Positions 4,136 to 22,460 of a DNA stretch of 32,000 bases are shown here, one piece after another. The position numbers and the translations under genes were made by a program. The notes beneath the pieces are model-generated. The model saw nothing but the letters and a program-made list of their open reading frames with translations. It did not search any database and was not told where the DNA came from. The DNA is from Haloferax volcanii DS2. Lineage in GTDB: Archaea > Halobacteriota > Halobacteria > Halobacteriales > Haloferacaceae. The stretch lies in NCBI RefSeq assembly GCF_000025685.1, contig NC_013967.1, forward strand, positions 1,080,001 through 1,112,000. The letters run 5' to 3'. Within the stretch, counting starts at the first letter, position 1, and every line of letters begins with the position of its first letter.

Positions 4136-4267
4136 GACCCGCTATTGTGAGACACGTACCCTAAAGAGAGACCCTACCAAATCATTCTGAAAAATATTCC
4201 TGAAATAATCACGGAACGCTCGTTTCGTCCGACGGGGTCCGGGGTCCCGACTATGGGCGGTCACAGG

Positions 4268-4275
4268 TATATTTA
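4268..4275 (+). promoter_or_regulatory. TATA box for the ABC binding-protein gene (leaderless geometry to ATG 4301)
   Basis: tatattta is centred ~29 nt upstream of ATG 4301, which opens the Tat/lipoprotein signal-peptide reading frame. Confidence 0.45.
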
Positions 4276-4300
4276 CGATAGCTGGAGAGCATTGCTTGTT

Positions 4301-4393
4301 ATGTCATCACACGACATGGAACGCAGAACGCTGCTGAAGCTGTCGGGGCTCTCGCTCGTCGGGGCGACCGCCGGCTGTCTCGAAGGGGAAGGT
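4301..4393 (+). other. Orphaned Tat-lipoprotein signal-peptide coding segment of the binding-protein gene (out of frame with the mature domain)
   Basis: The frame of ATG 4301/4316 encodes MSSHDMERRTLLKLSGLSLVGATAGCLEGEG, with a twin-arginine motif RRTLLK and a lipobox AGC. After the 28-bp duplication this frame runs on as Arg-rich nonsense (DRRLSRRGRRDPRGDD...). Confidence 0.65.
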
Positions 4394-4419
4394 GACCGCC
4401 GGCTGTCTCGAAGGGGAAG
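4364..4419 (+). repeat. Direct tandem duplication, 2 x 28 bp, 27/28 identical
   Basis: 4364-4391 is gcgaccgccggctgtctcgaaggggaag and 4392-4419 is gtgaccgccggctgtctcgaaggggaag. The only mismatch is c4365 versus t4393. The 28-bp unit is not a multiple of 3. Confidence 0.95.
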
Positions 4420-5606
4420 AAGAGACCCCCGCGGCGACGACCACCGAGGAAAGCGGCGGCGACGAATCGTCGTACACCATCGGGATGGTCGACTCGCTCA
4501 CCGGGTCGCTCGCGCCGTACGGCGAGCGCAACACTCGTGGCCGCGAACTCGCGCTCGCGGCCGTCAACGAGGTCGGTATCGGCTCCGAAGGGGCGTCGCT
4601 GAACATCTCCGTCGAGGACGACGAGAGTACGAACCAAGGCGGAGTCAACGGCGCACAGGTGCTCGTCAACCAAGACGGCGTCCCGCTTCTCATCGGCTCC
4701 GTGGGCTCCGGCGTCTCCATCGCCATCCACGACAGCGTCACGAGAGACGCCGGCGTCGTCCAAATCAGCCAGAACAGCACGAGTCCCGAACTCACGACGC
4801 GGCCGGAGCTGCTTCGGATGAGACCCTCTGGTTCCGCGAAGGGACAGGTGCTCGCCAGCCTCGTCAACGACGACGGCCACGACACGGTCGCCGTCACGTG
4901 GATCAACAACGACTACGGGACGGGGCTGTCCGAGGTGTTCGCCGAGATGTTCGAGTCCGAGTTCGACGGCACCGTCGCCTACAACGAACCGCACGACCAG
5001 GGTCAGTCGCCGTACAGCGGCGTCCTCACCGAGATGGCATCGACCGACGCCTCGGCGTGGATCTTCCTCACGTACGCGAACGAGTACACGGTCATGGTCA
5101 ACGAGGGCTTCGACCAGGGCTACAACACGTCCGTGGACTACTACGGCGCGGAGTCCACCGTCGCCGACTCCATCATCGAAAACACGCCCGAAGGCAGCAT
5201 GGACGGGATGACGGGCATCACCGAGAGCGCCCCGCAGGACCAGGAGAACTACCAGAACTTCGTCGCCGCGTTCGAGGAGAACTACGACGGGACGCCGACG
5301 GTCTGGTCGGCGTACGCCTACGACGCCGTGACGGTCGCGGCCATCGCCATCGAGGCGGCAGACGAGTTCACCGGCGAGGCGCTCGCGTCGGTCGTCCGCG
5401 ACGTGACCCGCCCCGAGGGCGAGGAGGTCTTCAACTTCGAGGAGGCCGCGGCCGTCCTCCGCGACGGCGGTTCGCCGGGCGACATCAACTATCAGGGCGT
5501 CAGCGGCCCGGTCGACCTCGACGAGAACGGCGACCCGCCGGGCTACTACCAGATTTACAGCGTCGAGGACCACGAGTACGTCTTCGGTGACTACATCACG
5601 AGCTAA
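4392..5606 (+). CDS. Branched-chain/amino-acid ABC transporter substrate-binding protein (LivJ/K-type); mature-domain ORF, probably a frameshifted pseudogene
   Basis: 404-aa acidic ORF with periplasmic-binding-protein type I character (YTIGMVDSLTGSLAPYGE, LIGSVGSGVSIA, WINNDYG), followed by livHMGF-type genes. It starts at a GTG inside repeat copy 2 and lacks its own signal peptide, which is encoded upstream in another frame. Confidence 0.8.
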   Translation: MTAGCLEGEEETPAATTTEESGGDESSYTIGMVDSLTGSLAPYGERNTRGRELALAAVNEVGIGSEGASLNISVEDDESTNQGGVNGAQVLVNQDGVPLLIGSVGSGVSIAIHDSVTRDAGVVQISQNSTSPELTTRPELLRMRPSGSAKGQVLASLVNDDGHDTVAVTWINNDYGTGLSEVFAEMFESEFDGTVAYNEPHDQGQSPYSGVLTEMASTDASAWIFLTYANEYTVMVNEGFDQGYNTSVDYYGAESTVADSIIENTPEGSMDGMTGITESAPQDQENYQNFVAAFEENYDGTPTVWSAYAYDAVTVAAIAIEAADEFTGEALASVVRDVTRPEGEEVFNFEEAAAVLRDGGSPGDINYQGVSGPVDLDENGDPPGYYQIYSVEDHEYVFGDYITS

Positions 5607-6186
5607 CTATCGCGCGCTGGTCTTCCTGTCGTTCGGAACCGAACCCGAGCGCTACGGCGTGTCCCGACAGGGCCCGATTCCGTGGGTCCGCGAGACGCTC
5701 GGCATCGCGGTCACGCCGCGCAACCTCGTCGTCGTGGCGCTCACCGTCGTCCTCGTGACGGCGTTGCACCTGACGCTGACGCGGACGACGCTCGGTCGGA
5801 AGATGCGCGCGACCGCCGACAACGCGGACCTCGCGCGGGTCAGCGGGATTCGGACCGGCGAGGTCATCTTCGCCATGTGGCTCATCGGCGGCGCGCTCGC
5901 CGCGGCCGGCGGCGTCTTCCTCGGACTGGAGGAACTCGTCCGCCCGCGGATGGGCTTCGACATCCTGCTTATCGTCTTCGCCGCGGTCATCCTCGGCGGC
6001 ATCGGCTCCGTCTACGGCGCGATGCTCGGTGGCCTCGTCATCGGGATGGTCCACGAGCTCGTTCCGCTGTTCTACCAGTGGGGCATCATCCCGGTCAGGT
6101 CGCGGTACGCCGCGGCCGTCGCGTTCGTCATCATGGTCGCTATCTTGCTCGTTCGCCCGAGCGGAATCGCGGGTGATAACGGATGA
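5587..6186 (+). CDS. livH: Branched-chain amino-acid ABC transporter permease, LivH-type, lacking the N-terminal ~125 residues
   Basis: 199 aa align only to the C-terminal ~60% of LivH. ANYRALVFLSFGTE corresponds to LQNYVSLTEGS at about residue 128 of E. coli LivH. Also present: TRTTLGRKMRATADNADLARVSGI, AAVILGGIGSVYGAMLGG and the LLVRPSGI tail. ATGA overlap with livM. Confidence 0.8.
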   Translation: MTTSRANYRALVFLSFGTEPERYGVSRQGPIPWVRETLGIAVTPRNLVVVALTVVLVTALHLTLTRTTLGRKMRATADNADLARVSGIRTGEVIFAMWLIGGALAAAGGVFLGLEELVRPRMGFDILLIVFAAVILGGIGSVYGAMLGGLVIGMVHELVPLFYQWGIIPVRSRYAAAVAFVIMVAILLVRPSGIAGDNG

Positions 6187-7307
6187 GCGCCGTCACCTCG
6201 TGGGTGACCGAGACGCTCGTCCGCGACGCGACCGAGCGGCGCATCTTCGCGGTGCTCGGACTCATCACCGTGTTGCTCGTCGTCGGCGTCCTCACCGGCG
6301 TCGTCGGACTGCGCTTCCTCCTGTTCCAAATCGCGCTCGTCGGGATGTACGCCCTGCTGTCGCTCGGACTCAACGTCCAGTGGGGCTACGCCGGACTCAT
6401 CAACTTCTCCGTCGCCGCCTTCTGGGGAATCGGCGCGTACTGCGCCGCGCTGTTGACCGCGCCGAACTCCCCGCTCGGACTCGGACTCCACCCGGTGTTC
6501 GGGTTCCTCGGGGCAATCGTCGTGAGCGCGCTCATCGCGGTGCTCATCGGCATCCCGACGCTCCGCCTGCGCGAGGACTACCTCGCCATCGCCAGTCTCG
6601 GACTCGCCGAGGTCATCCGCACCATCATCCTCAACGAAGACCAGTGGACCGCCGGGTCGAGAGGTATCAGCGGCATCCCGAACCTCCTGTCGTGGCTCCC
6701 GCTGACCGACTCCGCGACGACGGCCGCCGTCGTGGTCGTCCTCATCGCCGTCGTCTACCTGTTCCTCCGGCGCGTCCACCGGTCGCAGTGGGGGCGCGTC
6801 CTCCGGACCATCCGGTCCGACGAGGACCTCGCGAAGGCGCTCGGGAAGAACACCTACCGATTCAAGATGCAGGCGTTCGTCCTCGGCTCGGTCATCGTGG
6901 CCGTCGCCGGGGCGTTCTACGCCCACCTGAACCTCTACATCGACCCCTCCGACCTCGTTCCCCTGACGACGTTCTACATCTGGATCGCCGTCATCCTCGG
7001 CGGGACCGGGTCGAACCGCGGGGCGGTCGTCGGCGCGGCCGTCGTCATCGCCATCCGCGAGGGGACCCGCTTCCTCAACGACATCGGGTTCATCCAGACG
7101 CTCGGCGTCGACTTGGCCCCGCTCCGACTGCTGTTCGTCGGCGGGCTCATCATCCTCATCATGCGGTTCCGGCAGGACGGGCTCCTGCCGCCGAAGGACG
7201 AACTCATCTGGCCGGCGGCGCGCGACGGAAGCGGTGCCGGCGGCGCGTCTCCCTCCGGTGCCGCCTCCGACGGCGGGACCGCCTCGAACGGGGGTGACGA
7301 CCGATGA
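6183..7307 (+). CDS. livM: Branched-chain amino-acid ABC transporter permease, LivM-type
   Basis: 374 aa, multi-TM, with LNVQWGYAGLINFSVAAFWGIGAY and LREDYLAIASLGLAEVIR motifs typical of LivM. Start and stop overlap with the neighbouring genes. Confidence 0.9.
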   Translation: MSAVTSWVTETLVRDATERRIFAVLGLITVLLVVGVLTGVVGLRFLLFQIALVGMYALLSLGLNVQWGYAGLINFSVAAFWGIGAYCAALLTAPNSPLGLGLHPVFGFLGAIVVSALIAVLIGIPTLRLREDYLAIASLGLAEVIRTIILNEDQWTAGSRGISGIPNLLSWLPLTDSATTAAVVVVLIAVVYLFLRRVHRSQWGRVLRTIRSDEDLAKALGKNTYRFKMQAFVLGSVIVAVAGAFYAHLNLYIDPSDLVPLTTFYIWIAVILGGTGSNRGAVVGAAVVIAIREGTRFLNDIGFIQTLGVDLAPLRLLFVGGLIILIMRFRQDGLLPPKDELIWPAARDGSGAGGASPSGAASDGGTASNGGDDR

Positions 7308-8886: not shown

Positions 8887-9684
8887 CTACGCCGCGTGCT
8901 TTTCGATTTCGCCTTTGAGCGACGCGGCGTCGAAGTCGTGGTCGGGCCGGATGTTGACGAAGTCGAGGAAGTCGACGGCGTCCAACAGCGCGTCCGCGTC
9001 GTAGGAGTCGAGCGCCGCGGTGACGGCCTTCTTGGGACCGACGAGCGGTTCGAGCGCGGCCAGCCCGCAGGCGAGGTCGTACGCGCGGGCGTCGCGCATC
9101 CCCTCGTCGTTGACGTTCGTCGCGTCGATGAAGTAGATGCCGTCCTCGCGGACGAGGACGTTCTCGGCTCTGAGGTCGCCGTGAGCGAGGTGGTTGTCGT
9201 GCATCGCCGCGAGCGCCGCGAACAGTTCGGGGGCGAGCCGTTCGACCTCCGCTCGCGGGGCGGTGTCGAGGGTGTGGAAGTTCGGCAGGTATTCGAGGAC
9301 GAGCACGCCGAGACCGTCCACCTCGAACGCCTCGACCGGCGCGGGCGCTTGCAGGCCGATGTCGCGGAGTCGCTTCGTCGCTTCGAGTTCGTGTTCGGCC
9401 ATCTCCAGCGGCGTCCCGAAATGCCCGAAAAAGCCCTCCGTCCCGCTGGAGAACGCGCCGAGGTTTCGCCCGGTGGTGAAGACGGCGTGGACGAGCGAGT
9501 TCTGTTTGGAGATGACTTTCACGAACCACTCGTCGTCGACGACCATCGGGGTCGAAAGCCAGTTGTCCGCCTCGAGAAATCGGATGTGGAGGCTGTCGCG
9601 GTCGTATCGCCGAGCGAGTTCGCGGGCGACCGTCTCCAGACGCGGCCACCCGAGGCGGCCGCGGACGAGCCGACGGAGGTCCAT
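8887..9684 (-). CDS. Protein-kinase-fold protein (RIO/Bud32/Kdo-kinase-like)
   Basis: 265 aa. The catalytic-loop-like HGDLRAENVLV is followed by IYFIDATNV (metal-binding Asp). The subfamily is not resolved by eye. Confidence 0.65.
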   Translation of the reverse strand: MDLRRLVRGRLGWPRLETVARELARRYDRDSLHIRFLEADNWLSTPMVVDDEWFVKVISKQNSLVHAVFTTGRNLGAFSSGTEGFFGHFGTPLEMAEHELEATKRLRDIGLQAPAPVEAFEVDGLGVLVLEYLPNFHTLDTAPRAEVERLAPELFAALAAMHDNHLAHGDLRAENVLVREDGIYFIDATNVNDEGMRDARAYDLACGLAALEPLVGPKKAVTAALDSYDADALLDAVDFLDFVNIRPDHDFDAASLKGEIEKHAA

Positions 9685-9723
9685 GCACCCCCGTAAGACG
9701 AGGGGCGGCTTAACCTCGTGGGC

Positions 9724-10161
9724 CTACGACGATTCCTGTCGGACCGTCAACACGGGCGCGTCGGAGCCGCGGACGACGCGCTCGGCGACGCTCCCGATGA
9801 GGTAGCGGTCGATGCCGCTGCGGCCGTGAGTTCCCATCACGACGAGGTCCACCTCCCGTTCGTCGGCGTGGCGGATAATCTCGCTCGCGGGCGTGCCCTC
9901 CGTGACGACGGTCTCGACCTCGACGCCGGCCTCGCGGGCCGCCTGAGCGACGCGGTCTAGCACCTGCTCACCGCTTTCGAGGAGCGCCTCGCGGACCCGT
10001 TCGAGCGAGAGCGCGGGCGCGGCGTAGCCGACCTCGCGCACGTCCGCGACGTAGAGCGCCACGAGCGTCGCGTCGTAGGTGCGGGCGTGTTCGATGGCGT
10101 GGTCCAACGCGGCGTCCGCGCAGTCGCTGCCGTCGGTCGGAAAGAGGATGTGGGAGTACAT
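9724..10161 (-). CDS. Universal stress protein (UspA family)
   Basis: 145 aa: MYSHILFPTDGSDCADAALDHAIEHA..., VMGTHGRSGIDRYLIGSVAERVVRGSDAPVLTV. Confidence 0.9.
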   Translation of the reverse strand: MYSHILFPTDGSDCADAALDHAIEHARTYDATLVALYVADVREVGYAAPALSLERVREALLESGEQVLDRVAQAAREAGVEVETVVTEGTPASEIIRHADEREVDLVVMGTHGRSGIDRYLIGSVAERVVRGSDAPVLTVRQESS

Positions 10162-10313: not shown

Positions 10314-11456
<1,143 letters not shown>

Positions 11457-11480
11457 GCGGCCGTCGAAGCCGGCGGTGAC

Positions 11481-11936
11481 TCACTCCGACTCGGCCATCG
11501 CCGACAGCCGAGCGACGTAGGAGAAACTGCGGACGTGGTCCTCTTCTGTCGGCGCGTCCTCGAAGTCGGCGGGGACGGTAAAGGAGACGACGCGCTCGCG
11601 AATCGTGTCGTGCGGCTCGTCGCCTATCCAGCCGATATCGCGGTAGTACGACGCCATCTCCAGCGCGCCGCGACCGCCGAGTCGCTCGACGAGGTGGACA
11701 CACCAGTCGAGCAGCACGCGCTCGGCCCGCGGCGTCCGCGGAATCTCGTCGAGGAACGGCTCGCCGTCCGAGGTGACAGCCGCGGTCGTCGCGAGGAGGC
11801 GCTCGTGAGCCACGTCGCTCCACGCCCGGTTCGTCGGTGCGTCGACCCAGTCGAACGACCGAGCGCCGGAGTTCCGTCTGAGTCCGGGCCCGGTCGGGCC
11901 GTCGGCGTCAGTCGGGTGACGTGACTCGCGCGGCAT
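11481..11936 (-). CDS. ArlD/E (FlaD/E, Arch_fla_DE) domain protein, stand-alone paralog
   Basis: 151 aa. RVLLDWCVHLVERLGGRGALEMASYYRDIGWIGDEPHDTIRERV...HVRSFSYVARLSAM aligns by eye to the C-terminal domain of ArlCE (22770-24209) and to the 15684-16214 product. Confidence 0.75.
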   Translation of the reverse strand: MPRESRHPTDADGPTGPGLRRNSGARSFDWVDAPTNRAWSDVAHERLLATTAAVTSDGEPFLDEIPRTPRAERVLLDWCVHLVERLGGRGALEMASYYRDIGWIGDEPHDTIRERVVSFTVPADFEDAPTEEDHVRSFSYVARLSAMAESE

Positions 11937-12258
11937 CTATCCCTGCGTGTGCGTCCATCCGAATTAAGCGTTCGGGCGAACGTCCGACATATGACAGCCA
12001 CACGAACGTTCAATCCGAGAGAGTGGGTGAACGGTTGAGCTGATAACTCCGAACGAGACTACGAGTCGAAAGCTGATTTGACGGGCGTGTCACTCGGCGT
12101 GGCGTGATTTCTCTCTTCGCTCCGTCTGCTATCAACTTTGATATATGGGGCGAATCGCTTAAGTTCCGTACCAGCTACACGTTTGATATCGCTCCGATGT
12201 GACACTCATCGGAAAGAACAGTTCCGAGAGAGTCACAGATGCGAGCCACGACCCACAT

Positions 12259-14385
12259 ATGACCAGCGTCGGGCAGTACCCACACGCGTACGCGCTGTTC
12301 GCCGCGGGCATCCTTGCGGGGGTCGTCACACTCGTTGTTCTCGGCCGGTTCCGACGCTACTCGCGGCGCGTCCGCCTCCCGTTTGCGCTGTTGACGCTCT
12401 CCGGGAGCATCTGGGCCACGGCGTACGGGTTCCTCTTCCTCCCGATGACGCCCAGCGCAGAACTGTTCTACGCGCAGTTGGCGTGGGCCGGCGCGGCCGT
12501 CATCCCGACGGTCTGGCTCGTCTTTGCGCTCGTCTACGCCGGCGAAGACCAGCTCCTCTCCACGCAGATGCTCGGCTTTCTGGCCGTCGAGCCCGCCGTC
12601 GCTATCGCCCTCAAGTTGACGAACGCCTCCCACGGGCTGCTCGGGTCGTCGCTCGGCCCCTGGCGGGCCATGCAGCCGGACCGGTTCGGCGCCCCCGGTG
12701 CGGACTTCCTCGGTCCGTTCGGCCCGGTCCTCGTCCTCGTCGCACACGTCGTTTACGGGTTCGGCGTCGCGGTCACCGGGGTGAGCGTCATCGCGAGAAC
12801 GTACCTCAAAAGCTCGAACATCCACCGGCGACAGGCCGGGTTTCTCTTCGTCGCCGGGGTGATTCCGCTCGCCGCGCTCGGCGGCGAGTTCTTCTTCCCG
12901 TTCCGCATCAATCCGGTCCCCGTCTCTATCGGCGTTAGCTCGGTCGTCGTGCTCTGGGCGCTCTTCAGACACCAACTGTTCGATATCACGCCCATCGCCC
13001 GCGACGCGATTCTCTCGGAGATGCGCGACGCCGTCGTCGTCCTCGACGAACAGGACCGAATCGTCGAATCGAACGGGGCCGCCTCGGAACTGTTAGCGCG
13101 GCCGGTCTCCGAGTGCGTCGGCGAGTCCGTCCTCGAAAGCGTTCGCGTGCCGTCCGAGGTTCAGGCGGTGTTAGCGGGTCGAGACAGGGCGCAAGCGGTC
13201 GTCGAAGACGACGGGACCAACCGCTATTTCGAGGTCCGTTCCGAACCGCTCGGCGACCAGACACGCGACCGGACGCGCTTGCTCGTCTTCTACGACGTGA
13301 CGGAACGCCGCCGCACCGAAGAGGAGTTCCGCGCGCTCATCGAGAACTCGCGGGACGTCATCACCGTCCTCAACGAGGACGGCGAACGGACCTACACGAG
13401 TCCCTCGATGACCGAGGTGCTCGGCTATCAGACCGACGCGCTCGTCGGTGAGCCGGTGCTCGACCTCGTCCACCCCGATGACAGAGACCGGGTCGCTGAC
13501 TGCTTCGACGAGGTGGTCTCCGGCGACCCGCCCGTGCGCGCCGAGTTCAGAGTCCGCCACAAAAACGGTACGTGGCGGCGGTTCGAGACGGTTGGCGTCA
13601 ACCTCCTTGATGACCCCGCCGTCGGCGGCGTCGTGTTGAACTCGCGGGACGTGACGAGTCGCCATCGCTACGAACAGCGCCTCCGAGTGTTGAATCGCGT
13701 CCTCCGGCACGACCTCAGAAACGACATGAACGTCATCCTCGGCCACGCCGACCTCCTCCTCGACGAACGCATCCCCGCCGAGTCGAAGGACCACGCCCGG
13801 ACGATAAAGCGGAAGGCGTCGTCGCTCGTCGAACTCGGCGAGCAGACCCGGCACATCGACACGACGCTCACCCGCGGGCCGTCCGGACTCGAACCCGTCG
13901 AGGTGGTCGAGCGCATCGAGGCGCAGTTAGACGACATCGAGTCCGACTACCCCGAGGCAATCGTCCACCGGAACCTCCCCGACAAGATGTGGGTCACCGC
14001 GGACGACCTCATCGAATCGGCACTCAAACACCTCATCGACAACGCGCTCGAACACAACGACCGCGTCATCCCGGAGGTCGGCGTCACCGTCGAGCGGAGC
14101 GCGACCTCGAACGACTACGTCGAGATTCGAATCGCCGACAACGGGCCGGGCGTCCCCGACGCCGAACTCTCCGTCCTCGAATCGGGGACCGAGACGCCGC
14201 TCCAGCACATCAGCGGACTCGGCCTCTGGCTGGTCCAGTGGATAATCGACCGCTCGAACGGTCGGCTCCGGTTCACGGAGAACGAGCCGCGGGGGTCCGT
14301 CGCCATCGTCGGCCTCCGGAGCGCCGACCGAGCAGCCTCCGCCAGCGACGGCGGCACGATAACGGGCGAGTCGGAGACGGACTGA
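12259..14385 (+). CDS. Sensor histidine kinase: N-terminal multi-TM (7TM-type) domain, two PAS domains, HisKA/HATPase_c
   Basis: About 260 aa of hydrophobic helices, then two PAS-like segments (including RAEFRVRHKNGTWRRFETVGVNLLDD). H-box RVLRHDLRNDMNVILGHADLL, N-box DNALEHN, G1 DNGPGV, G2 GLGLWL. ATG 12259 is preferred over GTG 12199. Confidence 0.9.
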   Translation: MTSVGQYPHAYALFAAGILAGVVTLVVLGRFRRYSRRVRLPFALLTLSGSIWATAYGFLFLPMTPSAELFYAQLAWAGAAVIPTVWLVFALVYAGEDQLLSTQMLGFLAVEPAVAIALKLTNASHGLLGSSLGPWRAMQPDRFGAPGADFLGPFGPVLVLVAHVVYGFGVAVTGVSVIARTYLKSSNIHRRQAGFLFVAGVIPLAALGGEFFFPFRINPVPVSIGVSSVVVLWALFRHQLFDITPIARDAILSEMRDAVVVLDEQDRIVESNGAASELLARPVSECVGESVLESVRVPSEVQAVLAGRDRAQAVVEDDGTNRYFEVRSEPLGDQTRDRTRLLVFYDVTERRRTEEEFRALIENSRDVITVLNEDGERTYTSPSMTEVLGYQTDALVGEPVLDLVHPDDRDRVADCFDEVVSGDPPVRAEFRVRHKNGTWRRFETVGVNLLDDPAVGGVVLNSRDVTSRHRYEQRLRVLNRVLRHDLRNDMNVILGHADLLLDERIPAESKDHARTIKRKASSLVELGEQTRHIDTTLTRGPSGLEPVEVVERIEAQLDDIESDYPEAIVHRNLPDKMWVTADDLIESALKHLIDNALEHNDRVIPEVGVTVERSATSNDYVEIRIADNGPGVPDAELSVLESGTETPLQHISGLGLWLVQWIIDRSNGRLRFTENEPRGSVAIVGLRSADRAASASDGGTITGESETD

Positions 14386-14483
14386 GAGACGGGCTGAGCC
14401 GCGCAGTAATCGAGTCGCATGATCGACGTGTCAAAGCCGAAACAGAGAACGAGACAACGAGCCGACCCGAGAGCCGAGCGTGT

Positions 14484-15581
14484 TCAGGTCGCGTTTCGGT
14501 CCCGGAGCCGCACCGCGAGCCTGTGTGCGCCCGCGGCCGCGGCGGTCGTCGGGTCGTCGGGGACGACCACGTCTACGGGACGGTCGAGCTCCGCGGCGAG
14601 GCGTGATTCGAGTTCTGCGACCAAGCCGGGGATGCACGCCATCCCGCCGGTGACGACCAGCGGGCGTGCGCGAGCGAGCTGATAGGTCTTCATGTGCGAA
14701 CTCGCCAGCCGCGAGAAGAAGTCGCTGAGCTCTGTGACCGCGTCGTCGAGGTAGTCGTCCAGCGGCTCCATCACGCCCCGTTCGACGGTGAACTCGTGGA
14801 CGCCGTCGCCGCCGTCTCCGTCCCCGCGTTCGACCGCGTCGGTGAAGGGTTCGAACCCGCCGAAGTCGGCGTGGGTTTCCTTGTACTCGCGGGCGGTGTC
14901 GGGGTCGATGGTCGCGCGCCCCTCGGTCTCGGCTTCGACCGCCTCGGCGATGCGCCGGTCGACGCGGTCGCCGGACACCTCTGCGGAGACGAACGGGAGC
15001 AACCGCGTTCCGTGTCGGTACGCGCACGCTTCGAGGTTCGTCGGGCCGAGGTCGAGGGCGACGAACACCTCGTCGACCGCCTCGATTCCGTCGCCGAGCG
15101 CCGGAATCGACGCGCACAGCGATTCCGGGAGCCCTCGCGTGAGCGTCCCCCCGAGGCCGCACTCACCGACTGCGGTGCCGAAGTTCGCGAGGCCGACCCT
15201 GTCGTCGACGGTCGGCATCGCGTAGACGACGGCGCTTTCGGCCGGGAGGTCGTGTCGCTCGCAGAGTTCGCGGACGAACCGCTCGAACAACTCGGCGTCG
15301 CGGGCGGTCGCGGGCACGCCCGAGCGAAGCATGAACTCCGCTCGGTCACCGGACCGCCGGACCGCCCCCTCGTCGTCGCTGACGCGTTCGTCGCCGGGGA
15401 GCGCGTCTTCGCCGTCGACCAGACACGAAGGGACCTGAACGGTCGTCGCCGCGTCGCCGTCGTCGAAGACGAGCGTCGTTCGGGCGCTCCCGAACTTGAC
15501 GCCGACGGCGGTCGGAGCGTCGCGCTCGCCGGACTCGGGCGTCGCGTCAGTGCCGTTGGCCGTGGCTGCGTCGTTCGTCAT
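14484..15581 (-). CDS. Divergent actin/MreB/PilM-like (ASKHA-fold) ATPase-family protein
   Basis: 365 aa with five ASKHA signatures in order: AVGVKFGSARTTLVF (aa ~25-39), AVVYAMPTVDD (~117-127), FVALDLGPTNLEA (~173-185), LVVTGGMACIPGLVAEL (~308-324), TTAAAAGAHRLA (~345-356). Coding is confident; the fold assignment is by eye only. Confidence 0.75.
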   Translation of the reverse strand: MTNDAATANGTDATPESGERDAPTAVGVKFGSARTTLVFDDGDAATTVQVPSCLVDGEDALPGDERVSDDEGAVRRSGDRAEFMLRSGVPATARDAELFERFVRELCERHDLPAESAVVYAMPTVDDRVGLANFGTAVGECGLGGTLTRGLPESLCASIPALGDGIEAVDEVFVALDLGPTNLEACAYRHGTRLLPFVSAEVSGDRVDRRIAEAVEAETEGRATIDPDTAREYKETHADFGGFEPFTDAVERGDGDGGDGVHEFTVERGVMEPLDDYLDDAVTELSDFFSRLASSHMKTYQLARARPLVVTGGMACIPGLVAELESRLAAELDRPVDVVVPDDPTTAAAAGAHRLAVRLRDRNAT

Positions 15582-15683
15582 ACGGTATCAACTCGATTCG
15601 GACTCGGCGGGGTGGTTCGCGCAGTCATGGGATACACTCGGTTGTCGGAAGGAGAGACCGTGTTCGAGACCCGGCGGTCGGCG

Positions 15684-16214
15684 TCACACCATCGAGGAGA
15701 GGCGGGCGACGTAGACCAGGCTCAGCAGGTGGTCGTCGACGTCGAGGTCGGTCGGTTCGTCGACGTCGGCGGAGAAGCCGAGGAGATAGTCCCGGAGCGT
15801 CTCCTCGACGTCCGGCGTGACCCAGCCGACCGTCTGGTAGTACCGGAGGGCGTCCATCGCCCGCTTGAACCCGCTTTTGAGGACGAGGAACTCCAGCCAG
15901 TCGAAGACGACGCGCTCCGCGCCGTACTTGTCCGGCAGCGAGCGGAGATACGGCTTTTCGACGCCGTCTTCCTCGCCGCGGGACTGGTGGACGAGCAGGT
16001 GTTCGAGTTGGCTCGACCGGAGCGCCTCGGACGCCTCCTGTCGGCTCCGGTCGAAAAGCGGGTTATCGAACCGGAACGGTCCGCGGTCGTCGAACCGGCC
16101 GTCGTCGAACCGGCCGTCGTCGAATCTACCGTCGCCGTTCCGTCTGGCTCGTGGTGCGTCACGCGCGATACGTCGAAGTTCGTCTGGGTCGTATTCGTCC
16201 GGGTCCAGGTACAT
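15684..16214 (-). CDS. ArlD/E (FlaD/E, Arch_fla_DE) domain protein with N-terminal (GRFDD)3 repeat
   Basis: 176 aa. RVVFDWLEFLVLKSGFKRAMDALRYYQTVGWVTPDVEETLRDYL...HLLSLVYVARLSSM matches the ArlD/E domain. The N-terminal region reads NGDGRFDDGRFDDGRFDDRGPFRFDNPLFD. Confidence 0.8.
   Translation of the reverse strand: MYLDPDEYDPDELRRIARDAPRARRNGDGRFDDGRFDDGRFDDRGPFRFDNPLFDRSRQEASEALRSSQLEHLLVHQSRGEEDGVEKPYLRSLPDKYGAERVVFDWLEFLVLKSGFKRAMDALRYYQTVGWVTPDVEETLRDYLLGFSADVDEPTDLDVDDHLLSLVYVARLSSMV
16086..16130 (-). repeat. 15-bp tandem repeat x3 (plus degenerate flanking copies), coding for GRFDD units
   Basis: gtcgtcgaaccggcc at 16086-16100 and 16101-16115, and gtcgtcgaatctacc at 16116-16130. In frame, on the minus strand of the 15684-16214 CDS. 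Confidence 0.9.
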
Positions 16215-16506
16215 GGGTCACCTCGTTCAGGACGGCACGAATCCCCTGAGTCCCCCGACTCGGGGCGGCGGAGCACGCAGCGCGCTGTCCGCGATGTCAC
16301 ACGCGATATCGTACCGTGTCGGTGAAAGCATTCGAAGGAGGCGACATAAATCTATTCGAGACATTATCACTCGTGATACCTCGATGTGCGGGCGCTCGAA
16401 CTCGGTCGTCGTCATTCGACAGTCGGTGTCGTCGGTCACCAAACGATGAGTGTGGGTTCGTTCCAACACCGTCGCACCGAGACCGAGGGACAAGGAGCCG
16501 AACCGC

Positions 16507-17016
16507 TCAGAGAACGTGAGTGCCGCTCTTCGCGCTTCGCACGCGGAGGTCGCCGGTCTCGCTGTCGAGTTCCAGCGAACGGCCGTGGGAGCCGCCGACG
16601 TCCTCGGCGACGACGTCGATGCCGAACCCGTCGAGCGTCGTTCGCGTCGCGGCGACGTTTCGGTCGCCGATACTGCCGTCGCCGTCGGCCGAGGTGAAGT
16701 CGAACATCGTGCTTCCCCCGGCGATTTTGGCGACGATTCGGTCGGTGTCCGCGCCGACTGCCTGCATCTCTGCGATCAGGAGTTCGACGCCGGTGTCGAC
16801 GAACTTCGCCGGCTCGCTGCCGTCATCCGCCTCCGGAAGCATCGCGTGTGCGAGCCCCGAGACGCCGGTCTCGGGGTCGTACAGCGCGACGCCGATACAG
16901 GAACCGAGACCGCTCGTCGTCAGCGTGCTCTCGTCGCTGGAGACGGCGAAGTCGGCGATTCCGACCTTGATTCGGCCGGAGCGGGCCGCGGGCGTGTCCG
17001 TGGTGTAAACTTGCAT
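16507..17016 (-). CDS. cheD: Chemoreceptor glutamine deamidase CheD
   Basis: 169 aa. GLGSCIGVALYD (catalytic Cys), GLAHAMLP (His) and KIAGGSTMF are typical CheD motifs. Confidence 0.92.
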   Translation of the reverse strand: MQVYTTDTPAARSGRIKVGIADFAVSSDESTLTTSGLGSCIGVALYDPETGVSGLAHAMLPEADDGSEPAKFVDTGVELLIAEMQAVGADTDRIVAKIAGGSTMFDFTSADGDGSIGDRNVAATRTTLDGFGIDVVAEDVGGSHGRSLELDSETGDLRVRSAKSGTHVL

Positions 17017-17037
17017 TGAGATTCCTCTACGGAGGGG

Positions 17038-18225
17038 TCACGCGGCGGGCGAGAGTTGCTTGAGCGCCTTGCGCAGTTCCGTCTCGTCGGGGAGCGCGTA
17101 GATATCGCAGGTGAACTCGTCGTCGTCCGTTCGAATAGTCGAGTCGATGAGGAACGCGTACTCTTGGGACTGCGCGAGGTCGGTCGCGAGCGGGTCGATG
17201 ATGGCCGACCCGATGTCGTGGACGTGCTTCGGCGGCGAGATGTCGATGGTCGTTTCGAGCGCGTTCGCCCAGCCGTCGAGGAAGCCGGAGGTCGTGATGT
17301 TCCCGATTTCCTGAATCGCGCTCTGGCGCATCGCCTCGTCGCCCTCCATGCCCGGCAGGAGGCTGCTGGCGATGTTCTCGGCCGACGGCTCGTCGAAGAG
17401 GATAGCGATGTAGCCGCTCGGCGTCCCGCTGAACTCCAAGACGACGCCGCGTCGAACCGCGTCGGTCAGCGACATCGGCACGCCCTCGATGGGGACGAAG
17501 CTCAGCCGACTCACCTCGACGGTCGTGTCGATGCCCGTCATCGCGGTGATGTCCTCGGACGCCTGGGTCGCGCCGTCGTTTATCATCTCGGAGAAGGCGG
17601 CGAACGACTCGACCGGGAGCGCGCCGTCGTCGCCGCTCGCCTCGACGATGGTCCCGATGGACGAGGCGGTCGGCACCATGTACAGGTCGAACTCGATGGC
17701 GTTGTCCGCGGCCTCCAACTGGTTGCGGAAGACGAGGACGTGCTCGTCGTCGCCGCCGTTTTCGAACCCCTCGGCGTCGACGCGGTCGAGCGGGCCGTCG
17801 TTCTCGTCGTCGACGTAGGTCGGTGTCGTGATGTCGACGGTGGTGTCGAGGTAGTCGGCCCAGCCGTCGATGAAACCGCCGAGCATGATGTTCGCGACCT
17901 CTTTGAGGCTACTCTCAGCGAGTTCGCCGTCGGCGTCGGTGGCGTCGATGCCCGGCATCAACGCGTCGACCAACCGCTCTGCGGACTCGGGCGAGAACGC
18001 CAACACGGTGTGGCCGTCTAAGCCGCCCGAAAAGCCGATGTGGACGCTCACGAGGTCGCGCTCGGCGAACTCGTTTTCCACGTCCGACTTCGTCCCGAGT
18101 TCGACCTTGGTGACGTTGACGTACGTGTCGATGCCCGCGAGCGTGGTCAGCGAACCGGCGGCTTTCTCCGCGCCCGAGTGGGCGAGCCGACTGAACGTGC
18201 GGAGCGACCGGACGTCGAGATTCAT
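17038..18225 (-). CDS. cheC: CheY-P phosphatase CheC, duplicated CheC-CheC architecture
   Basis: 395 aa from ATG 18225. Two internally repeated halves (AAGSLTTLAGIDTYVNVTKVEL... and ASEDITAMTGIDTTVEVSRLSF...) contain EVANIMLGGFIDGWA and EIGNITTSGFLDGWA CheC-type motifs. ATGA overlap with the cheY stop. Confidence 0.9.
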   Translation of the reverse strand: MNLDVRSLRTFSRLAHSGAEKAAGSLTTLAGIDTYVNVTKVELGTKSDVENEFAERDLVSVHIGFSGGLDGHTVLAFSPESAERLVDALMPGIDATDADGELAESSLKEVANIMLGGFIDGWADYLDTTVDITTPTYVDDENDGPLDRVDAEGFENGGDDEHVLVFRNQLEAADNAIEFDLYMVPTASSIGTIVEASGDDGALPVESFAAFSEMINDGATQASEDITAMTGIDTTVEVSRLSFVPIEGVPMSLTDAVRRGVVLEFSGTPSGYIAILFDEPSAENIASSLLPGMEGDEAMRQSAIQEIGNITTSGFLDGWANALETTIDISPPKHVHDIGSAIIDPLATDLAQSQEYAFLIDSTIRTDDDEFTCDIYALPDETELRKALKQLSPAA

Positions 18226-18590
18226 GCCTCTGCCTGAATCACGTCGGCGATAGCCTGGAGCACGTTCGGCTTCTGGAACGGCTTCGTGATGTAGCCGTCC
18301 GCCCCCGCCTCGACCGCTTCGCGCATCTTTTCTTCCTGTCCGACCGACGTGCACATGATAACCGATGCGCCGGCGTCGAGCGACTTGATCTCGGACGTCG
18401 CTTCGATGCCGTTTCGAATCGGCATCACGACGTCCATCGTGACGACATCGGGTTCGAGTTCGCGGTAGAGTTCCACCGCTTCGACCCCGTTTTCGGCCTC
18501 GCCGACGACTTCGTGTTCACCCTCGAGGAGCTGTTTGAGGAGATTCCGCATGAACGCAGAGTCGTCCACGACCAGTACCTTGCTTGCCAT
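18222..18590 (-). CDS. cheY: Chemotaxis response regulator CheY
   Basis: 122 aa. MASKVLVVDDSAFMRNLL..., phospho-acceptor context DVVTMDVVMP, conserved T (CTS) and K (ITKPF). ggaggt lies just upstream of ATG 18590. Confidence 0.95.
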   Translation of the reverse strand: MASKVLVVDDSAFMRNLLKQLLEGEHEVVGEAENGVEAVELYRELEPDVVTMDVVMPIRNGIEATSEIKSLDAGASVIMCTSVGQEEKMREAVEAGADGYITKPFQKPNVLQAIADVIQAEA

Positions 18591-18738
18591 ACCTCCAGAT
18601 TTCCGAAAATCACACCATAAACCCTTCCTCCCCATTATCAAGGCTGATATGGTGTGTCGAGGAGGAACCACCCGCGTCGCGTCGTGCAGACCGCAGCAAT
18701 CGGGTTCCAACGCCCACCCGAACCGCGTCACCGACGCA

Positions 18739-19401
18739 TCAGCGTCGGCGCGGCGGGAACGACGCGCCGGTGTCTTCGACGGCGTCGAGGAGGTCGCCGA
18801 TGCTGTCGTCTCGGTCGAGTCCGTTGGCGGTCGCGAGCGCCTCGACGGCACGAACGGGATAGGTAACCCGCACCTCCGAGGCTAAAAGCAGGATGCCGAG
18901 CACCTCGTCGCGCGGGGTGTCGGCGTTGCCGACGGCGTCGGCGTACCACGAGAGAAACGAGTTGACGACTTCGGTCACGTCGTCGGAGACGGTCTCGTGG
19001 CGAGCGACGTTGCCGTCGACGAGCGCGGTGGTGACGAGCGCGTGGTCCGCGCGGACCGCTCCGACGCGCTCTGCGAGCAGGCGTCGAGCGAGCACGGCCC
19101 GTTTTTTCGGGTCTTTCGGGAGGACGAGTTCGGGAGCCGCGGCGTCCTCGCCGCGCTCGTCGTGCTCGTCGCCCTCGCCGGAGGTCTCCGTATCGGACCC
19201 TGTGGTCTCACCCGAATCGGAGGGCGGGCTCTCGTCGTCTGCCGCGTCGGCGGCCGGCGGCTTGGCCTCTCCGGTCGAGATGACGTACCGGCCCGTGTCG
19301 AGCGCCGCGACGTGCTCGTCGCGGCTGATATCGAGTTCGTCCGTCCCGACGACCCCCTGTTCTCGCTGGTGAGTGGGGGGACGTTCGTCCTCGTCGTCCA
19401 T
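18739..19401 (-). CDS. Hypothetical acidic protein (220 aa): disordered N-terminal half, helical C-terminal domain
   Basis: This is the only halophile-like part of the 514-aa ORF 18739-20283. It starts at ATG 19401 (MDDEDERPPTHQ...), with a minus-strand TATA-like attatatg ~26 nt upstream. No family recognised. Confidence 0.6.
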   Translation of the reverse strand: MDDEDERPPTHQREQGVVGTDELDISRDEHVAALDTGRYVISTGEAKPPAADAADDESPPSDSGETTGSDTETSGEGDEHDERGEDAAAPELVLPKDPKKRAVLARRLLAERVGAVRADHALVTTALVDGNVARHETVSDDVTEVVNSFLSWYADAVGNADTPRDEVLGILLLASEVRVTYPVRAVEALATANGLDRDDSIGDLLDAVEDTGASFPPRRR

Positions 19402-19423
19402 CGGCGAATGCTCGGTGCCGTGG

Positions 19424-19431
19424 CATATAAT
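19424..19431 (-). promoter_or_regulatory. TATA-like box for the 18739-19401 gene (leaderless geometry)
   Basis: The plus strand reads catataat and the minus strand attatatg, centred ~26 nt upstream of ATG 19401. Confidence 0.35.
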
Positions 19432-19509
19432 CCCATCGTCACCGTCCGTGGCGGACTCACTACTATGACTGAGAACGTGGCAGATAGCCAACCAACACAT
19501 TGACAAGCC

Positions 19510-19872
19510 GTGCGTCCTGATAAATCTCCATCTATGGAGTCTGACAGGACCCTCTCCGCACTGGGAAACGAATACAACCCTGACATCCTCCGTGCCGCGG
19601 ACGAACCCCACTCGGCACAGGAGTTCAGCGAGATGTTGGACATCCCCATCGCGACCTGTTATCGCCGGATCGAGGAGTTGACGGCGGCGGGGCTCCTCGA
19701 ACTGCACGACCGGGTTCTCTCCGACGAGCACCGACGAACGAACGTCTACCGCCGTGAAGTCGACGAAATCGTCGTTCGGTTCGAGGGCGACGACTACACG
19801 GTCAGCGTGACCGAACGCCCGGAGGTGAAGAACAAACTCGACGACGTGTGGCGGAAGATTACGCAGGACTGA
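19510..19872 (+). CDS. Small winged-helix (ArsR/HTH_20-like) DNA-binding protein
   Basis: 112-120 aa (GTG 19510 or ATG 19534). AQEFSEMLDIPIATCYRRIEELTAAGLLE forms the helix-turn-helix and RTNVYRR the wing. It lies 213 bp upstream of, and co-oriented with, the archaellin genes. Confidence 0.75.
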   Translation: MRPDKSPSMESDRTLSALGNEYNPDILRAADEPHSAQEFSEMLDIPIATCYRRIEELTAAGLLELHDRVLSDEHRRTNVYRREVDEIVVRFEGDDYTVSVTERPEVKNKLDDVWRKITQD

Positions 19873-20085
19873 ACCGCTCCGACTCCGGACTCTTTTCTTA
19901 CGTTTTCTGAGACGAGTGCTCGCTGATCGCTCGCGTGAGCGTGCGGAGGAGTTTACGTATTGACGCACCGACCCTACGATATCAGTCTTGATAGTGAGGG
20001 CCGTAGCGTTATGTAGGACCTCTCCAAGTTGACGAGTGACGGTTCCCCGCTCCCCACCGAGTGTGGGACCAAACCCACGAAATCT

Positions 20086-20727
20086 ATGTTCGAAAACATC
20101 AACGAAGACCGGGGTCAGGTCGGTATCGGGACGCTCATCGTCTTCATCGCGATGGTTCTGGTCGCCGCAATCGCGGCGGGCGTCCTCGTGAACACGGCTG
20201 GCTTCCTGCAAGCCACTGCCGAGGACGCCGGACAGCAATCTGTGAACAAGGTCACCAACCGCGTCGACGTCGTCAACGCCCACGGCTTGGTTAACAAGAC
20301 CGGCGAGGAACGCACCGTCGACCAGATTTTCCTGACGGTCCGCCTCGCGGCCGGTTCGGGGAGTGTCTCTCTCGAAGATACGACGGTCAAGTACCTGAGT
20401 GAGACGACCGCGCGAACCCTCACCTACAACGACACCGTCACCGGCTCCGACACGGCAGACCCGGCTAACCTGACGACTGGGAACAACTTCACCGCGGGCG
20501 TCCTCGAAGACGGGGACGACTCGTTCGAGGTTCTCAACGAGCAGTCCGACCGCGCGGAGATGGTCATCAACACCTCCACGGTCGAGGGTGACAACACCAA
20601 CGGGACGGCCACGGGTCAGACCGTCAAGCTCGACATCACCAGCCGCAACGGTGGCACGGCGCAGGTCATCCTGACGATGCCCCAGCAGCTCGCCGGCAAG
20701 GACAACAACGACCCCATTGCGCTCTGA
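20086..20727 (+). CDS. arlA1: Archaellin (first of a tandem pair; numbering is positional)
   Basis: [10 protein letters not shown]|[32 protein letters not shown] is a class III signal peptide with the archaeal prepilin-peptidase site and conserved hydrophobic N-terminus. Multiple N-x-S/T sequons (NKT, NDT, NLT, NFT, NTS, NGT). Confidence 0.95.
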
Positions 20728-21719: not shown

Positions 21720-22460
21720 TTACTCGGTCTCTTCGCCGAACCACGGCGGCGACTCCCCGACCATGGAGAACCCGGCCGCCTGCTCGTATATCTTGATACC
21801 CCCCTGTGCGATTTCCAGCGGGAACATGGAGTTCTTGATGCTCTGCTTGCGCATTTTCGCGACCCAGATGTAGCGGTTGCTCGTCGCGCCCGCGGGACTC
21901 TGGATGAGGTAGATGTTCCCGTCGGTCAGGAAGTTCTCGAGGCCGATGTCGGTCTCGGGGAAGATGGCCGACTGCTCGGTCGTCAGAAGCGAGGTGAGAC
22001 CGCTGTCTTTCAGGATGTCGATGAACTTCAACAGATACTGGCGCTGTTCTTTCTCGTCGTCGAAAAACAGCTGGAACATCGTCAGCGAGTCGAGGACGAG
22101 CCGGTCGTAGTTGGTGTCCTGGAGGTCGCCGAGGATGCGGTCGAGCGTCGCCGAGAAGTCGCCGTCGCGGAGGAGCGTCCGCTTGTCGTAGACCTTGATC
22201 TCGCCGGACTCGACGTACTCGTGCCAGCGGTCGAAGCCGATGGACTCGGCCGCCTCGCGGATGTCGTCTTCCGTCTCTTCGAAGGTGAGATACAGGCCAC
22301 CCTCATCGAACTGGTCGACGCCGTTGTAGAGATACTGGAGGCCGAGGATACTCTTCCCTGTCCCCGGGTTGCCGCTGATGAGCACCGCGGCGTTCTTGAC
22401 GATACCGCCGTTCAGGATGGAATCGAGTCCTTCGACACCGGTCTTGACTAGTTCTGTCAT
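21720..22460 (-). CDS. KaiC-like / RecA-superfamily single-domain ATPase (distinct from ArlH)
   Basis: 246 aa. GVEGLDSILNGGI, Walker A GNPGTGKS, LYLTFEE (catalytic Glu pair), Walker B YDRLVLDSL. Confidence 0.9.
   Translation of the reverse strand: MTELVKTGVEGLDSILNGGIVKNAAVLISGNPGTGKSILGLQYLYNGVDQFDEGGLYLTFEETEDDIREAAESIGFDRWHEYVESGEIKVYDKRTLLRDGDFSATLDRILGDLQDTNYDRLVLDSLTMFQLFFDDEKEQRQYLLKFIDILKDSGLTSLLTTEQSAIFPETDIGLENFLTDGNIYLIQSPAGATSNRYIWVAKMRKQSIKNSMFPLEIAQGGIKIYEQAAGFSMVGESPPWFGEETE

Follow-up and report, generated by a model that had tools for sequence, protein, structure and literature searches.

HVO_1202 of Haloferax volcanii, a divergent member of the salactin family encoded next to arlD1

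Family identity and fold of HVO_1202

The gene HVO_1202 of Haloferax volcanii DS2 lies in the archaellum (arl) and chemotaxis (che) gene cluster, on a stretch of 32,000 nucleotides (contig NC_013967.1, positions 1,080,001 to 1,112,000) that is referred to as a whole as the window. Together with arlD1, which precedes it, the gene forms a unit of two genes, the arlD1-salactin unit (Table 1). The predicted product matches the H. volcanii DS2 protein HVO_1202 (D4GWW7) exactly and belongs to a sequence cluster present on 157 contigs; the source databases as well as papers on H. volcanii motility label it 'hypothetical protein'. That HVO_1202 is a genuine gene and not a chance open reading frame (ORF) is confirmed by its match to the Pfam family Salactin (E = 1.8e-146), by identity with a known protein, by a ratio of nonsynonymous to synonymous substitution rates (dN/dS) of 0.24-0.38 and by the listing of the protein among the differentially abundant proteins of a proteomics study (PMC12949519).

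HVO_1202 is almost certainly the H. volcanii member of the salactin family, with an MreB/MamK-like actin fold. It reaches 487.9 bits against Pfam PF25229 (cut-off 27.1), with residues 23-359 covering positions 1-334 of the 335 in the profile, and 444.5 bits against the NCBIfam salactin equivalog NF053533 (cut-off 400), a modest margin that fits a divergent family member. A preliminary description of the locus, made from the DNA sequence, had seen an undescribed actin-fold element here; with both curated thresholds passed and the family described in 2023 (PMC10746226), HVO_1202 is instead a divergent member of a protein family that is already known. Scores for other actin-like families stay below the respective cut-offs, with 16.8 bits for Volactin PF25216 (cut-off 35), 21 bits for MamK in NCBIfam (cut-off 400) and a value far under the cut-off for BeeR. 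Matches at E ≤ 0.01 were obtained neither to MreB_Mbl PF06723 in Pfam nor to the PilM families in Pfam and NCBIfam. Some other salactins carry a precomputed PF06723 match; the protein from one of the loci described below (L037) scored 23.8 bits against this profile, below the cut-off of 27. Among PDB sequences, HVO_1202 found MamK only, and marginally so (E = 0.12).

An AlphaFold2 model of HVO_1202, built from an alignment of 22 haloarchaeal salactin sequences that also served for analyzing motif conservation, has a predicted local distance difference test score (pLDDT) of 82.8 and a predicted template modelling score (pTM) of 0.82. Residues 1-19, for which the pLDDT is below 50, make up an acidic disordered N-terminal tail. 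When the PDB was searched with this model in Foldseek, MreB came first (Mbl and the proteins from Caulobacter, Thermotoga, Geobacillus and Spiroplasma), together with BeeR and MamK. The top matches reach target-normalised template modelling scores (TM-scores) of ~0.70-0.81, with E-values between 1e-15 and 1e-19; DnaK and actin follow further down, and PilM chains are absent from the top 50 matches. The actin/ASKHA fold assigned in the preliminary description is borne out by the salactin profile match and by the structural matches to MreB, BeeR and MamK, while the analogy to PilM drawn there falls away, given that PilM appears neither in the family searches nor among these structural matches. 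Taken together, family scores and fold ranking rule out membership of HVO_1202 in the PilM, volactin or MreB families. To judge from the model, its similarity to MreB lies at the level of the fold only.

Comparison with named actin-like systems places the protein further. MamK and MreB share with HVO_1202 the five ASKHA motifs in the same order and a TM-score of ~0.74-0.81, with the range of E-values given above, but sequence similarity is marginal and the aspartate of phosphate-1 is replaced by lysine in salactin. MamK has been reported as the subfamily nearest to salactin, and a salactin deletion mutant of Halobacterium salinarum (Δsalactin) is unchanged in rod shape and in growth in rich medium (PMC10746226); the retained rod shape implies that salactin does not act like MreB. 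Volactin, which serves disk-shape formation in H. volcanii, is likewise a haloarchaeal actin homologue that forms dynamic filaments, but is separated from salactin as a family by Pfam score and differs from it in localisation and proposed role (PMC10869688). With PilM, HVO_1202 has in common the ASKHA fold and a gene position beside genes for a type-IV-filament-related machine, but there is no match in sequence or structure and salactin polymerises. To our knowledge, there is no evidence that PilM forms filaments. A pilMNOPQ-type context or a PilN-like partner was not found at the HVO_1202 locus, where arlD1, cheD, cheC, cheY and a histidine kinase gene are the neighbours.

The five actin/ASKHA motif strings that had been read from the sequence are all present in the HVO_1202 translation and follow each other in the order claimed (Table 1). 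In the 22-sequence alignment, K29, G31 and S32 of phosphate-1 are invariant, L30F and T33A being changes of the volcanii clade in columns that are otherwise near-invariant. In phosphate-2, G179 and T181 are invariant, N177D falls on a near-invariant column and P180 takes the place of a consensus serine at a more variable position. Invariant residues of the adenosine motif are G312, G313, M314, C316, P318 and G319, and HVO_1202 keeps G312-G319. The family signatures read G-V-K-L-G-S-T-R-T, N-[ML]-G-S-T-N-L-E-A and T-G-G-M-A-C-I-P-G for the three motifs. Two of the motifs of HVO_1202 had been singled out as atypical: DLGPT is indeed confined to the volcanii lineage, where it departs from the second of these signatures, whereas the lysine of K-x-G-S, invariant as it is throughout the alignment, is a trait of the family and not a peculiarity of this gene. 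Nor is there support for the suggestion that the lysine signals altered nucleotide chemistry, since it is conserved family-wide and the H. salinarum member is active as an ATPase (PMC10746226).

Beyond the motifs, HVO_1202 stands out by its divergence. It is ~51% identical to 214 typical salactins, which average ~70% identity among themselves, and it deviates at 23 of the 115 columns whose conservation in other salactins is 97% or higher, T33A, N177D and G157A among them. In comparison with close Haloferax species, the dN/dS range for HVO_1202 given above stands against 0.05-0.11 for ArlD1, 0.04-0.09 for CheC and ~0 for CheY. HVO_1202 thus represents a fast-evolving salactin lineage, under selection that is relaxed but clearly purifying.

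Pairing of salactin with arlD1 in Halobacteria

A profile-guided scan with one genome per GTDB species yielded 267 salactin-encoding stretches, the best 80 of which were analyzed together with 10-kb flanks. Neighbours were detected by tblastn with the proteins of the window, by an iterated Arch_fla_DE hidden Markov model on six-frame ORFs and by spot checks against Pfam; greedy longest-ORF calling and single-linkage clustering of neighbours proved unreliable in this DNA of 65-68% GC owing to antisense ORFs and links through acidic low-complexity segments. An Arch_fla_DE gene is located immediately upstream of salactin and on the same strand in 77 of the 80 loci (a count that is approximate by one, as it includes L060, which ends at a contig edge and gave no Arch_fla_DE match in the 627 bp of upstream sequence that could be searched) and in 33 of 35 genus-level labels. 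The spacer between the two genes has a median length of ~94 nt (75 loci), and some pairs overlap. In a neighbour-joining tree of the DE domain, the 77 salactin-adjacent proteins are monophyletic and stand apart from ArlD2 (17) and from the DE domain of ArlCE (24), which identifies them as orthologues of H. volcanii ArlD1.

Three loci lack the upstream ArlD gene. One of them contains the second salactin paralogue of H. mucosum (L009), which is directly followed by an ArlD2-type gene (11098-11580, plus strand). As arlD2 also resides near HVO_1202, both ArlD paralogues are linked to salactin in Haloferax. Another, on a metagenome-assembled Halobacteriales contig (L037), features salactin genes in tandem (4267-5364 and 5554-6642), perhaps the duplication that is mentioned for Natronomonas in the salactin paper. 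In the third (L065), a gene for methionine sulfoxide reductase is found upstream. An apparent gap of 1.1 kb after arlD1 in H. massiliensis (L004), with an extended ORF of 691 codons, was discarded as it goes back to a run of N (~9000-9990) in the 5' part of salactin.

The wider surroundings of the pair change from genus to genus. A full che/arl cluster is present beside it only in Haloferax, Salinigranum, Halobellus, Halogeometricum, Halopelagius and one unclassified relative, while the pair is found by itself in Haloarcula, Halorhabdus, Halorubrum, Haloplanus, Halohasta, Natronomonas and others, with no further arl or che gene within 10 kb in the first five of these genera. The conserved unit in the sampled Halobacteria is the arlD1-salactin pair and not the wider arl/che cluster. 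Of the linkage to arl/che genes proposed from the H. volcanii locus, the part concerning an ArlD1-type gene upstream of salactin holds, while the wider linkage is limited to about six genus-level groups; the link to the archaellum apparatus survives in this narrower form.

Twenty-two of the loci, mostly from Haloarcula, Halorhabdus and their relatives, contain a gene for a ParA/MinD-like ATPase arranged back-to-back with the pair (Table 1). In 16 of these 22 loci it is followed by a gene for a protein of ~330 residues with a C-terminal CheW domain. The combination of ParA/MinD-like and CheW proteins resembles the ParC/ParP system that positions polar arrays in Vibrio.

The pairing of arlD and salactin was not found in the literature searched. 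The salactin paper does not mention ArlD/FlaD (PMC10746226), and in our literature search papers that name HVO_1202 did not also name salactin.

The archaellum and chemotaxis locus of H. volcanii

ORF coordinates and Pfam confirm the position of HVO_1202 as first described, 102 bp downstream of a co-oriented gene with an ArlD/E domain and close to cheY-cheC-cheD (Table 1). Inspection of the spacer by eye, weak as such evidence is, revealed no AT-rich sequence that would obviously resemble a TATA box ~27 nt ahead of the HVO_1202 start codon, which is consistent with co-transcription of arlD1 and HVO_1202. A scan of positions 14300-16500 for promoters and terminators of the bacterial type, ill-suited to archaea, found nothing. 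'ArlD/HVO_1202' has been reported as one transcription unit that is up-regulated together with other arl/che units in a ΔcsmR strain (2026; PMC13286277).

Table 1. Features of HVO_1202 and its surroundings in the window, and ParA/MinD-like genes at salactin loci of other genomes
Feature	Position	Strand	Remarks
HVO_1202, predicted coding sequence of a salactin-family actin-fold ATPase	14484..15581	(-)	365 residues, ATG start, stop codon included
Phosphate-1 motif AVGVKFGSARTTLVF	15465..15509	(-)	residues 25-39; first beta-hairpin of the model, E25-30 / E34-41
Connect-1 motif AVVYAMPTVDD	15201..15233	(-)	residues 117-127
Phosphate-2 motif FVALDLGPTNLEA	15027..15065	(-)	residues 173-185
Adenosine motif LVVTGGMACIPGLVAEL	14610..14660	(-)	residues 308-324
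Connect-2 motif TTAAAAGAHRLA	14514..14549	(-)	residues 345-356
arlD1 (HVO_1203, FlaD1/ArlD)	15684..16214	(-)	176 residues; C-terminal Arch_fla_DE, PF04659 92.7 bits; conserved upstream partner of salactin
Intergenic spacer arlD1-HVO_1202	15582..15683	(-)	102 bp; sequence inspected by eye
AT-rich stretch …GATAATGTCTCGAATAGATTTATG…, candidate promoter of arlD1-salactin	16340..16375	(-)	~130 nt upstream of the arlD1 ATG; putative, by eye
T-rich tract …TCTCGTTCTCTGTTTTCGGCTTT…, candidate transcript end	14425..14483	(-)	after the HVO_1202 stop codon; by eye
7TM-PAS histidine kinase gene, convergent	12199-14385	(+)	next gene past the HVO_1202 stop codon
arlD2	11481..11936	(-)	151 residues; Arch_fla_DE, PF04659 73.8 bits; on the downstream side of salactin, past the convergent histidine kinase gene
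cheD, cheC, cheY	16507..18578	(-)	co-oriented, upstream of arlD1
ParA/MinD-like gene, back-to-back with the pair (22 loci)	~0.8-1.9 kb upstream of salactin	opposite strand	L032, L035, L036, L039, L040, L045-L048, L050-L054, L056, L061, L068, L070, L071, L075, L076, L080

The remaining genes of the window comprise arlA1/A2, a KaiC-like gene, arlCE-F-G-H-I-J and two cheF genes. The gene for the KaiC-family ATPase (21720-22460, minus strand), presumably the motility regulator CirA, separates the archaellin genes from arlCE; within Haloferax its identity amounts to 94-100%, and its dN/dS is 0.01-0.04. A DUF7500 gene upstream of cheY (18739-20283, minus strand) is the fastest-evolving of the cluster (dN/dS 0.5-0.6 in close Haloferax species) and gave two separate tblastn matches in several genera. 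The longest cheY ORF (18222-18851, minus strand, 209 codons, GTG start) has 113 nt (18739-18851) in common with the end of the DUF7500 ORF. Its receiver domain starts at residue 92, and NCBIfam CheY_Halo covers residues 92-205, so the actual start of cheY is probably an internal codon near 18578.

ArlD1, salactin and the cell pole

Salactin has been characterised in H. salinarum (VNG0153C / Q9HSN1; Zheng et al., mBio 2023, PMC10746226). Its filaments grow from polar foci toward mid-cell, with subunits joining at the free filament end, and then collapse, a behaviour that constitutes dynamic instability; the purified protein is an ATPase that polymerises with ATP or AMP-PNP, not with ADP (PMC10746226). 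In the Δsalactin mutant, DNA distribution is perturbed and viability reduced under low phosphate, the effect on DNA arising when ploidy is low, and a role in chromosome segregation has been proposed on the basis of data that the authors themselves call not definitive (PMC10746226). ATP-dependent polymerisation, dynamic instability and polar filaments have been shown for the H. salinarum protein only, with which HVO_1202 shares the curated family, size, the acidic disordered N-terminal tail and the K-x-G-S phosphate-1 motif. Dynamic instability, growth at the free end and a proposed function in DNA partitioning are features that salactin has in common with ParM, Alp7A and PhuZ (PMC10746226); unlike in these systems, the canonical haloarchaeal gene is chromosomal and has arlD at its side in place of a gene for a ParR-like adaptor or a centromere. 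A tblastn search of PLSDB with HVO_1202 gave no plasmid-borne copy.

In H. volcanii, ArlD1 belongs to the archaellum motor/switch complex, as a cytoplasmic protein located at the pole. Motility and archaellation are severely impaired in a ΔarlD1 strain, while a ΔarlD2 strain has no defect (Li et al., Mol Microbiol 2020, PMC7534055). ArlD-GFP is polar; ArlD shares this location with ArlCE, each of the two proteins requires the other, and both dock mainly via ArlH; in strains without ArlH, ArlI or ArlJ, 27-30% of the cells retain polar ArlD foci 'by another mechanism' (PMC7534055). Within the polar region the foci of ArlD move about, and sometimes they pass from pole to pole, while ArlH is static (PMC7534055).

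The near-universal adjacency to arlD in the genomes checked suggests that ArlD and salactin work together at the pole. On balance, we consider it probable that HVO_1202 is the salactin actin of the arlD1-salactin unit and acts with ArlD1 at the pole; for a physical link between ArlD and salactin, we rate the chances as about even. We propose that ArlD1 and salactin interact in one of two ways: ArlD or an ArlCDE pre-complex would form a polar site that anchors or nucleates salactin filaments or, the other way round, ArlCDE not bound to the motor would be carried or retained by the filaments at and between the poles. Salactin would then be a polar positioning or partitioning filament tied to the motility pole and not a part that generates torque or brings about switching, and in the volcanii clade it would have diverged quickly while still being under selection. 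Such a partnership would explain the polar origin of the filaments, the motor-independent ArlD foci and their movement from pole to pole. Its most specific form, in which the two conserved genes make up a module and the actin filament, dynamically unstable, binds ArlD physically and either anchors at the poles or delivers ArlCDE pre-complexes there, is put forward tentatively, and we regard it as possible but rather doubtful.

Several observations weigh against a joint action of ArlD and salactin. The H. salinarum Δsalactin mutant shows normal motility in soft agar (PMC10746226). Synteny of salactin is poor even within Halobacterium, and the H. salinarum gene lies near DNA replication and repair genes (PMC10746226), unlike HVO_1202 with its place in an arlD1 unit within the arl/che cluster. 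A review table groups H. salinarum arlD with htr15 (OE2392R) in a single operon or gene cluster (PMC7289035); together with the poor synteny, this indicates that the pair may be split in Halobacterium. No genus name from the Natrialbaceae or Halobacteriaceae appears in the best 80 of 267 loci. A homologue search with a Natronomonas salactin had no Halobacterium or Natrialbaceae entry in its best 120. A salactin orthologue of Methanocella paludicola (L081, 6001-7128), which scores 387 bits against the haloarchaeal profile, is without an Arch_fla_DE neighbour; it stands behind a gene for a CarboxypepD_reg/PEGA protein of 749 residues, with scpA/scpB ~5 kb upstream. Furthermore, salactin of the volcanii clade evolves several-fold faster than ArlD1 by the dN/dS values given above, and pairwise distances of salactin and ArlD1 are weakly correlated (r = 0.37); neither of these results points to an interface under tight co-evolution. 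Shared regulation alone could account for the adjacency.

In a rival reading, salactin is a filament for chromosome partitioning, or one linked to DNA repair, that functions independently of ArlD, the adjacency of the genes being regulatory or historical, e.g. through the timing of rod-cell or motile stages. Such independence is unlikely in our view, though it calls for serious consideration: disturbed DNA distribution and reduced viability at low phosphate, with normal motility, is the sole reported phenotype (PMC10746226), the Methanocella orthologue does without an ArlD neighbour, and distant salactin-like proteins (80-280 bits to the profile) are encoded in mobile-element or partition-like contexts. 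Among the latter, one gene (L083, 2081-3148) stands in a row of genes for a helicase, the salactin-like protein, a coiled-coil protein and ParA, and another (L085, 5001-6116) is found on an element with terminase, ribonucleotide reductase and Thy1. However, 77 same-strand pairs with short spacers in 80 loci, amid changing flanks, are hard to explain without selection on the pair, and the partitioning mechanism itself has merely been proposed, no centromere-like site being known (PMC10746226). An ArlD-independent filament would also leave unexplained why salactin is anchored at the pole and how ArlD remains polar independently of the motor. As a separate observation on the distant relatives, a further salactin-like gene (L086, 511-1500) adjoins a DNA methyltransferase gene among small ORFs, and one of the distant proteins (P0172) gave no phage match by tblastn against INPHARED.

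The preliminary description had gone further toward motility and considered the actin-fold protein as a part of the archaellum motor or switch. In this form, a PilM-like structural component of the motor/switch or Che machinery that is required for motility or taxis, the idea can point to the position of the gene inside the arl/che supercluster and its co-transcription with arlD1, to co-regulation with archaellum genes in the ΔcsmR strain (PMC13286277) and to the severe motility defect of ΔarlD1 (PMC7534055). The sole available experiment lends it no support, as Δsalactin cells of H. salinarum swim normally on soft agar (PMC10746226); a H. volcanii ΔHVO_1202 strain is not reported in the searchable literature. 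With no PilM match, a fold nearest to the filament-forming MreB, MamK and BeeR and a pair that lies apart from the arl operon in most sampled genera, we consider a structural motor part very unlikely. It is also conceivable, and compatible with the other readings, that the gene of the volcanii clade, as a relaxed or neofunctionalised copy, has ceased to act as a canonical salactin. The reduced identity to relatives that resemble each other more closely, the 23 altered near-invariant columns, a dN/dS 3-7 times that of the neighbouring genes and the existence of a second, more canonical copy elsewhere in H. mucosum (L009) would agree with this. We nevertheless judge it improbable, because dN/dS is well under 1, the ORF is full-length, its core motifs are intact and its model shows an actin fold with confidence, the protein has been detected by proteomics (PMC12949519) and the NCBIfam equivalog cut-off is still passed.

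Should the link between ArlD and salactin be merely regulatory, HVO_1202 would count as an ordinary orthologue, if somewhat divergent, of a protein that is already known. If, on the other hand, the salactin filament does engage ArlD physically, actin would drive the placement of the motility machinery at the poles, or its inheritance, in Halobacteria, and perhaps that of chromosomes as well. A positioning system based on actin would then be linked for the first time to a motility organelle of archaea. The gene pair joins two puzzles, the polar anchor of salactin and the motor-independent polar movement of ArlD, in a genetically tractable organism, and a link between the two proteins could connect the actin-like cytoskeleton with polar organisation and archaeal motility.

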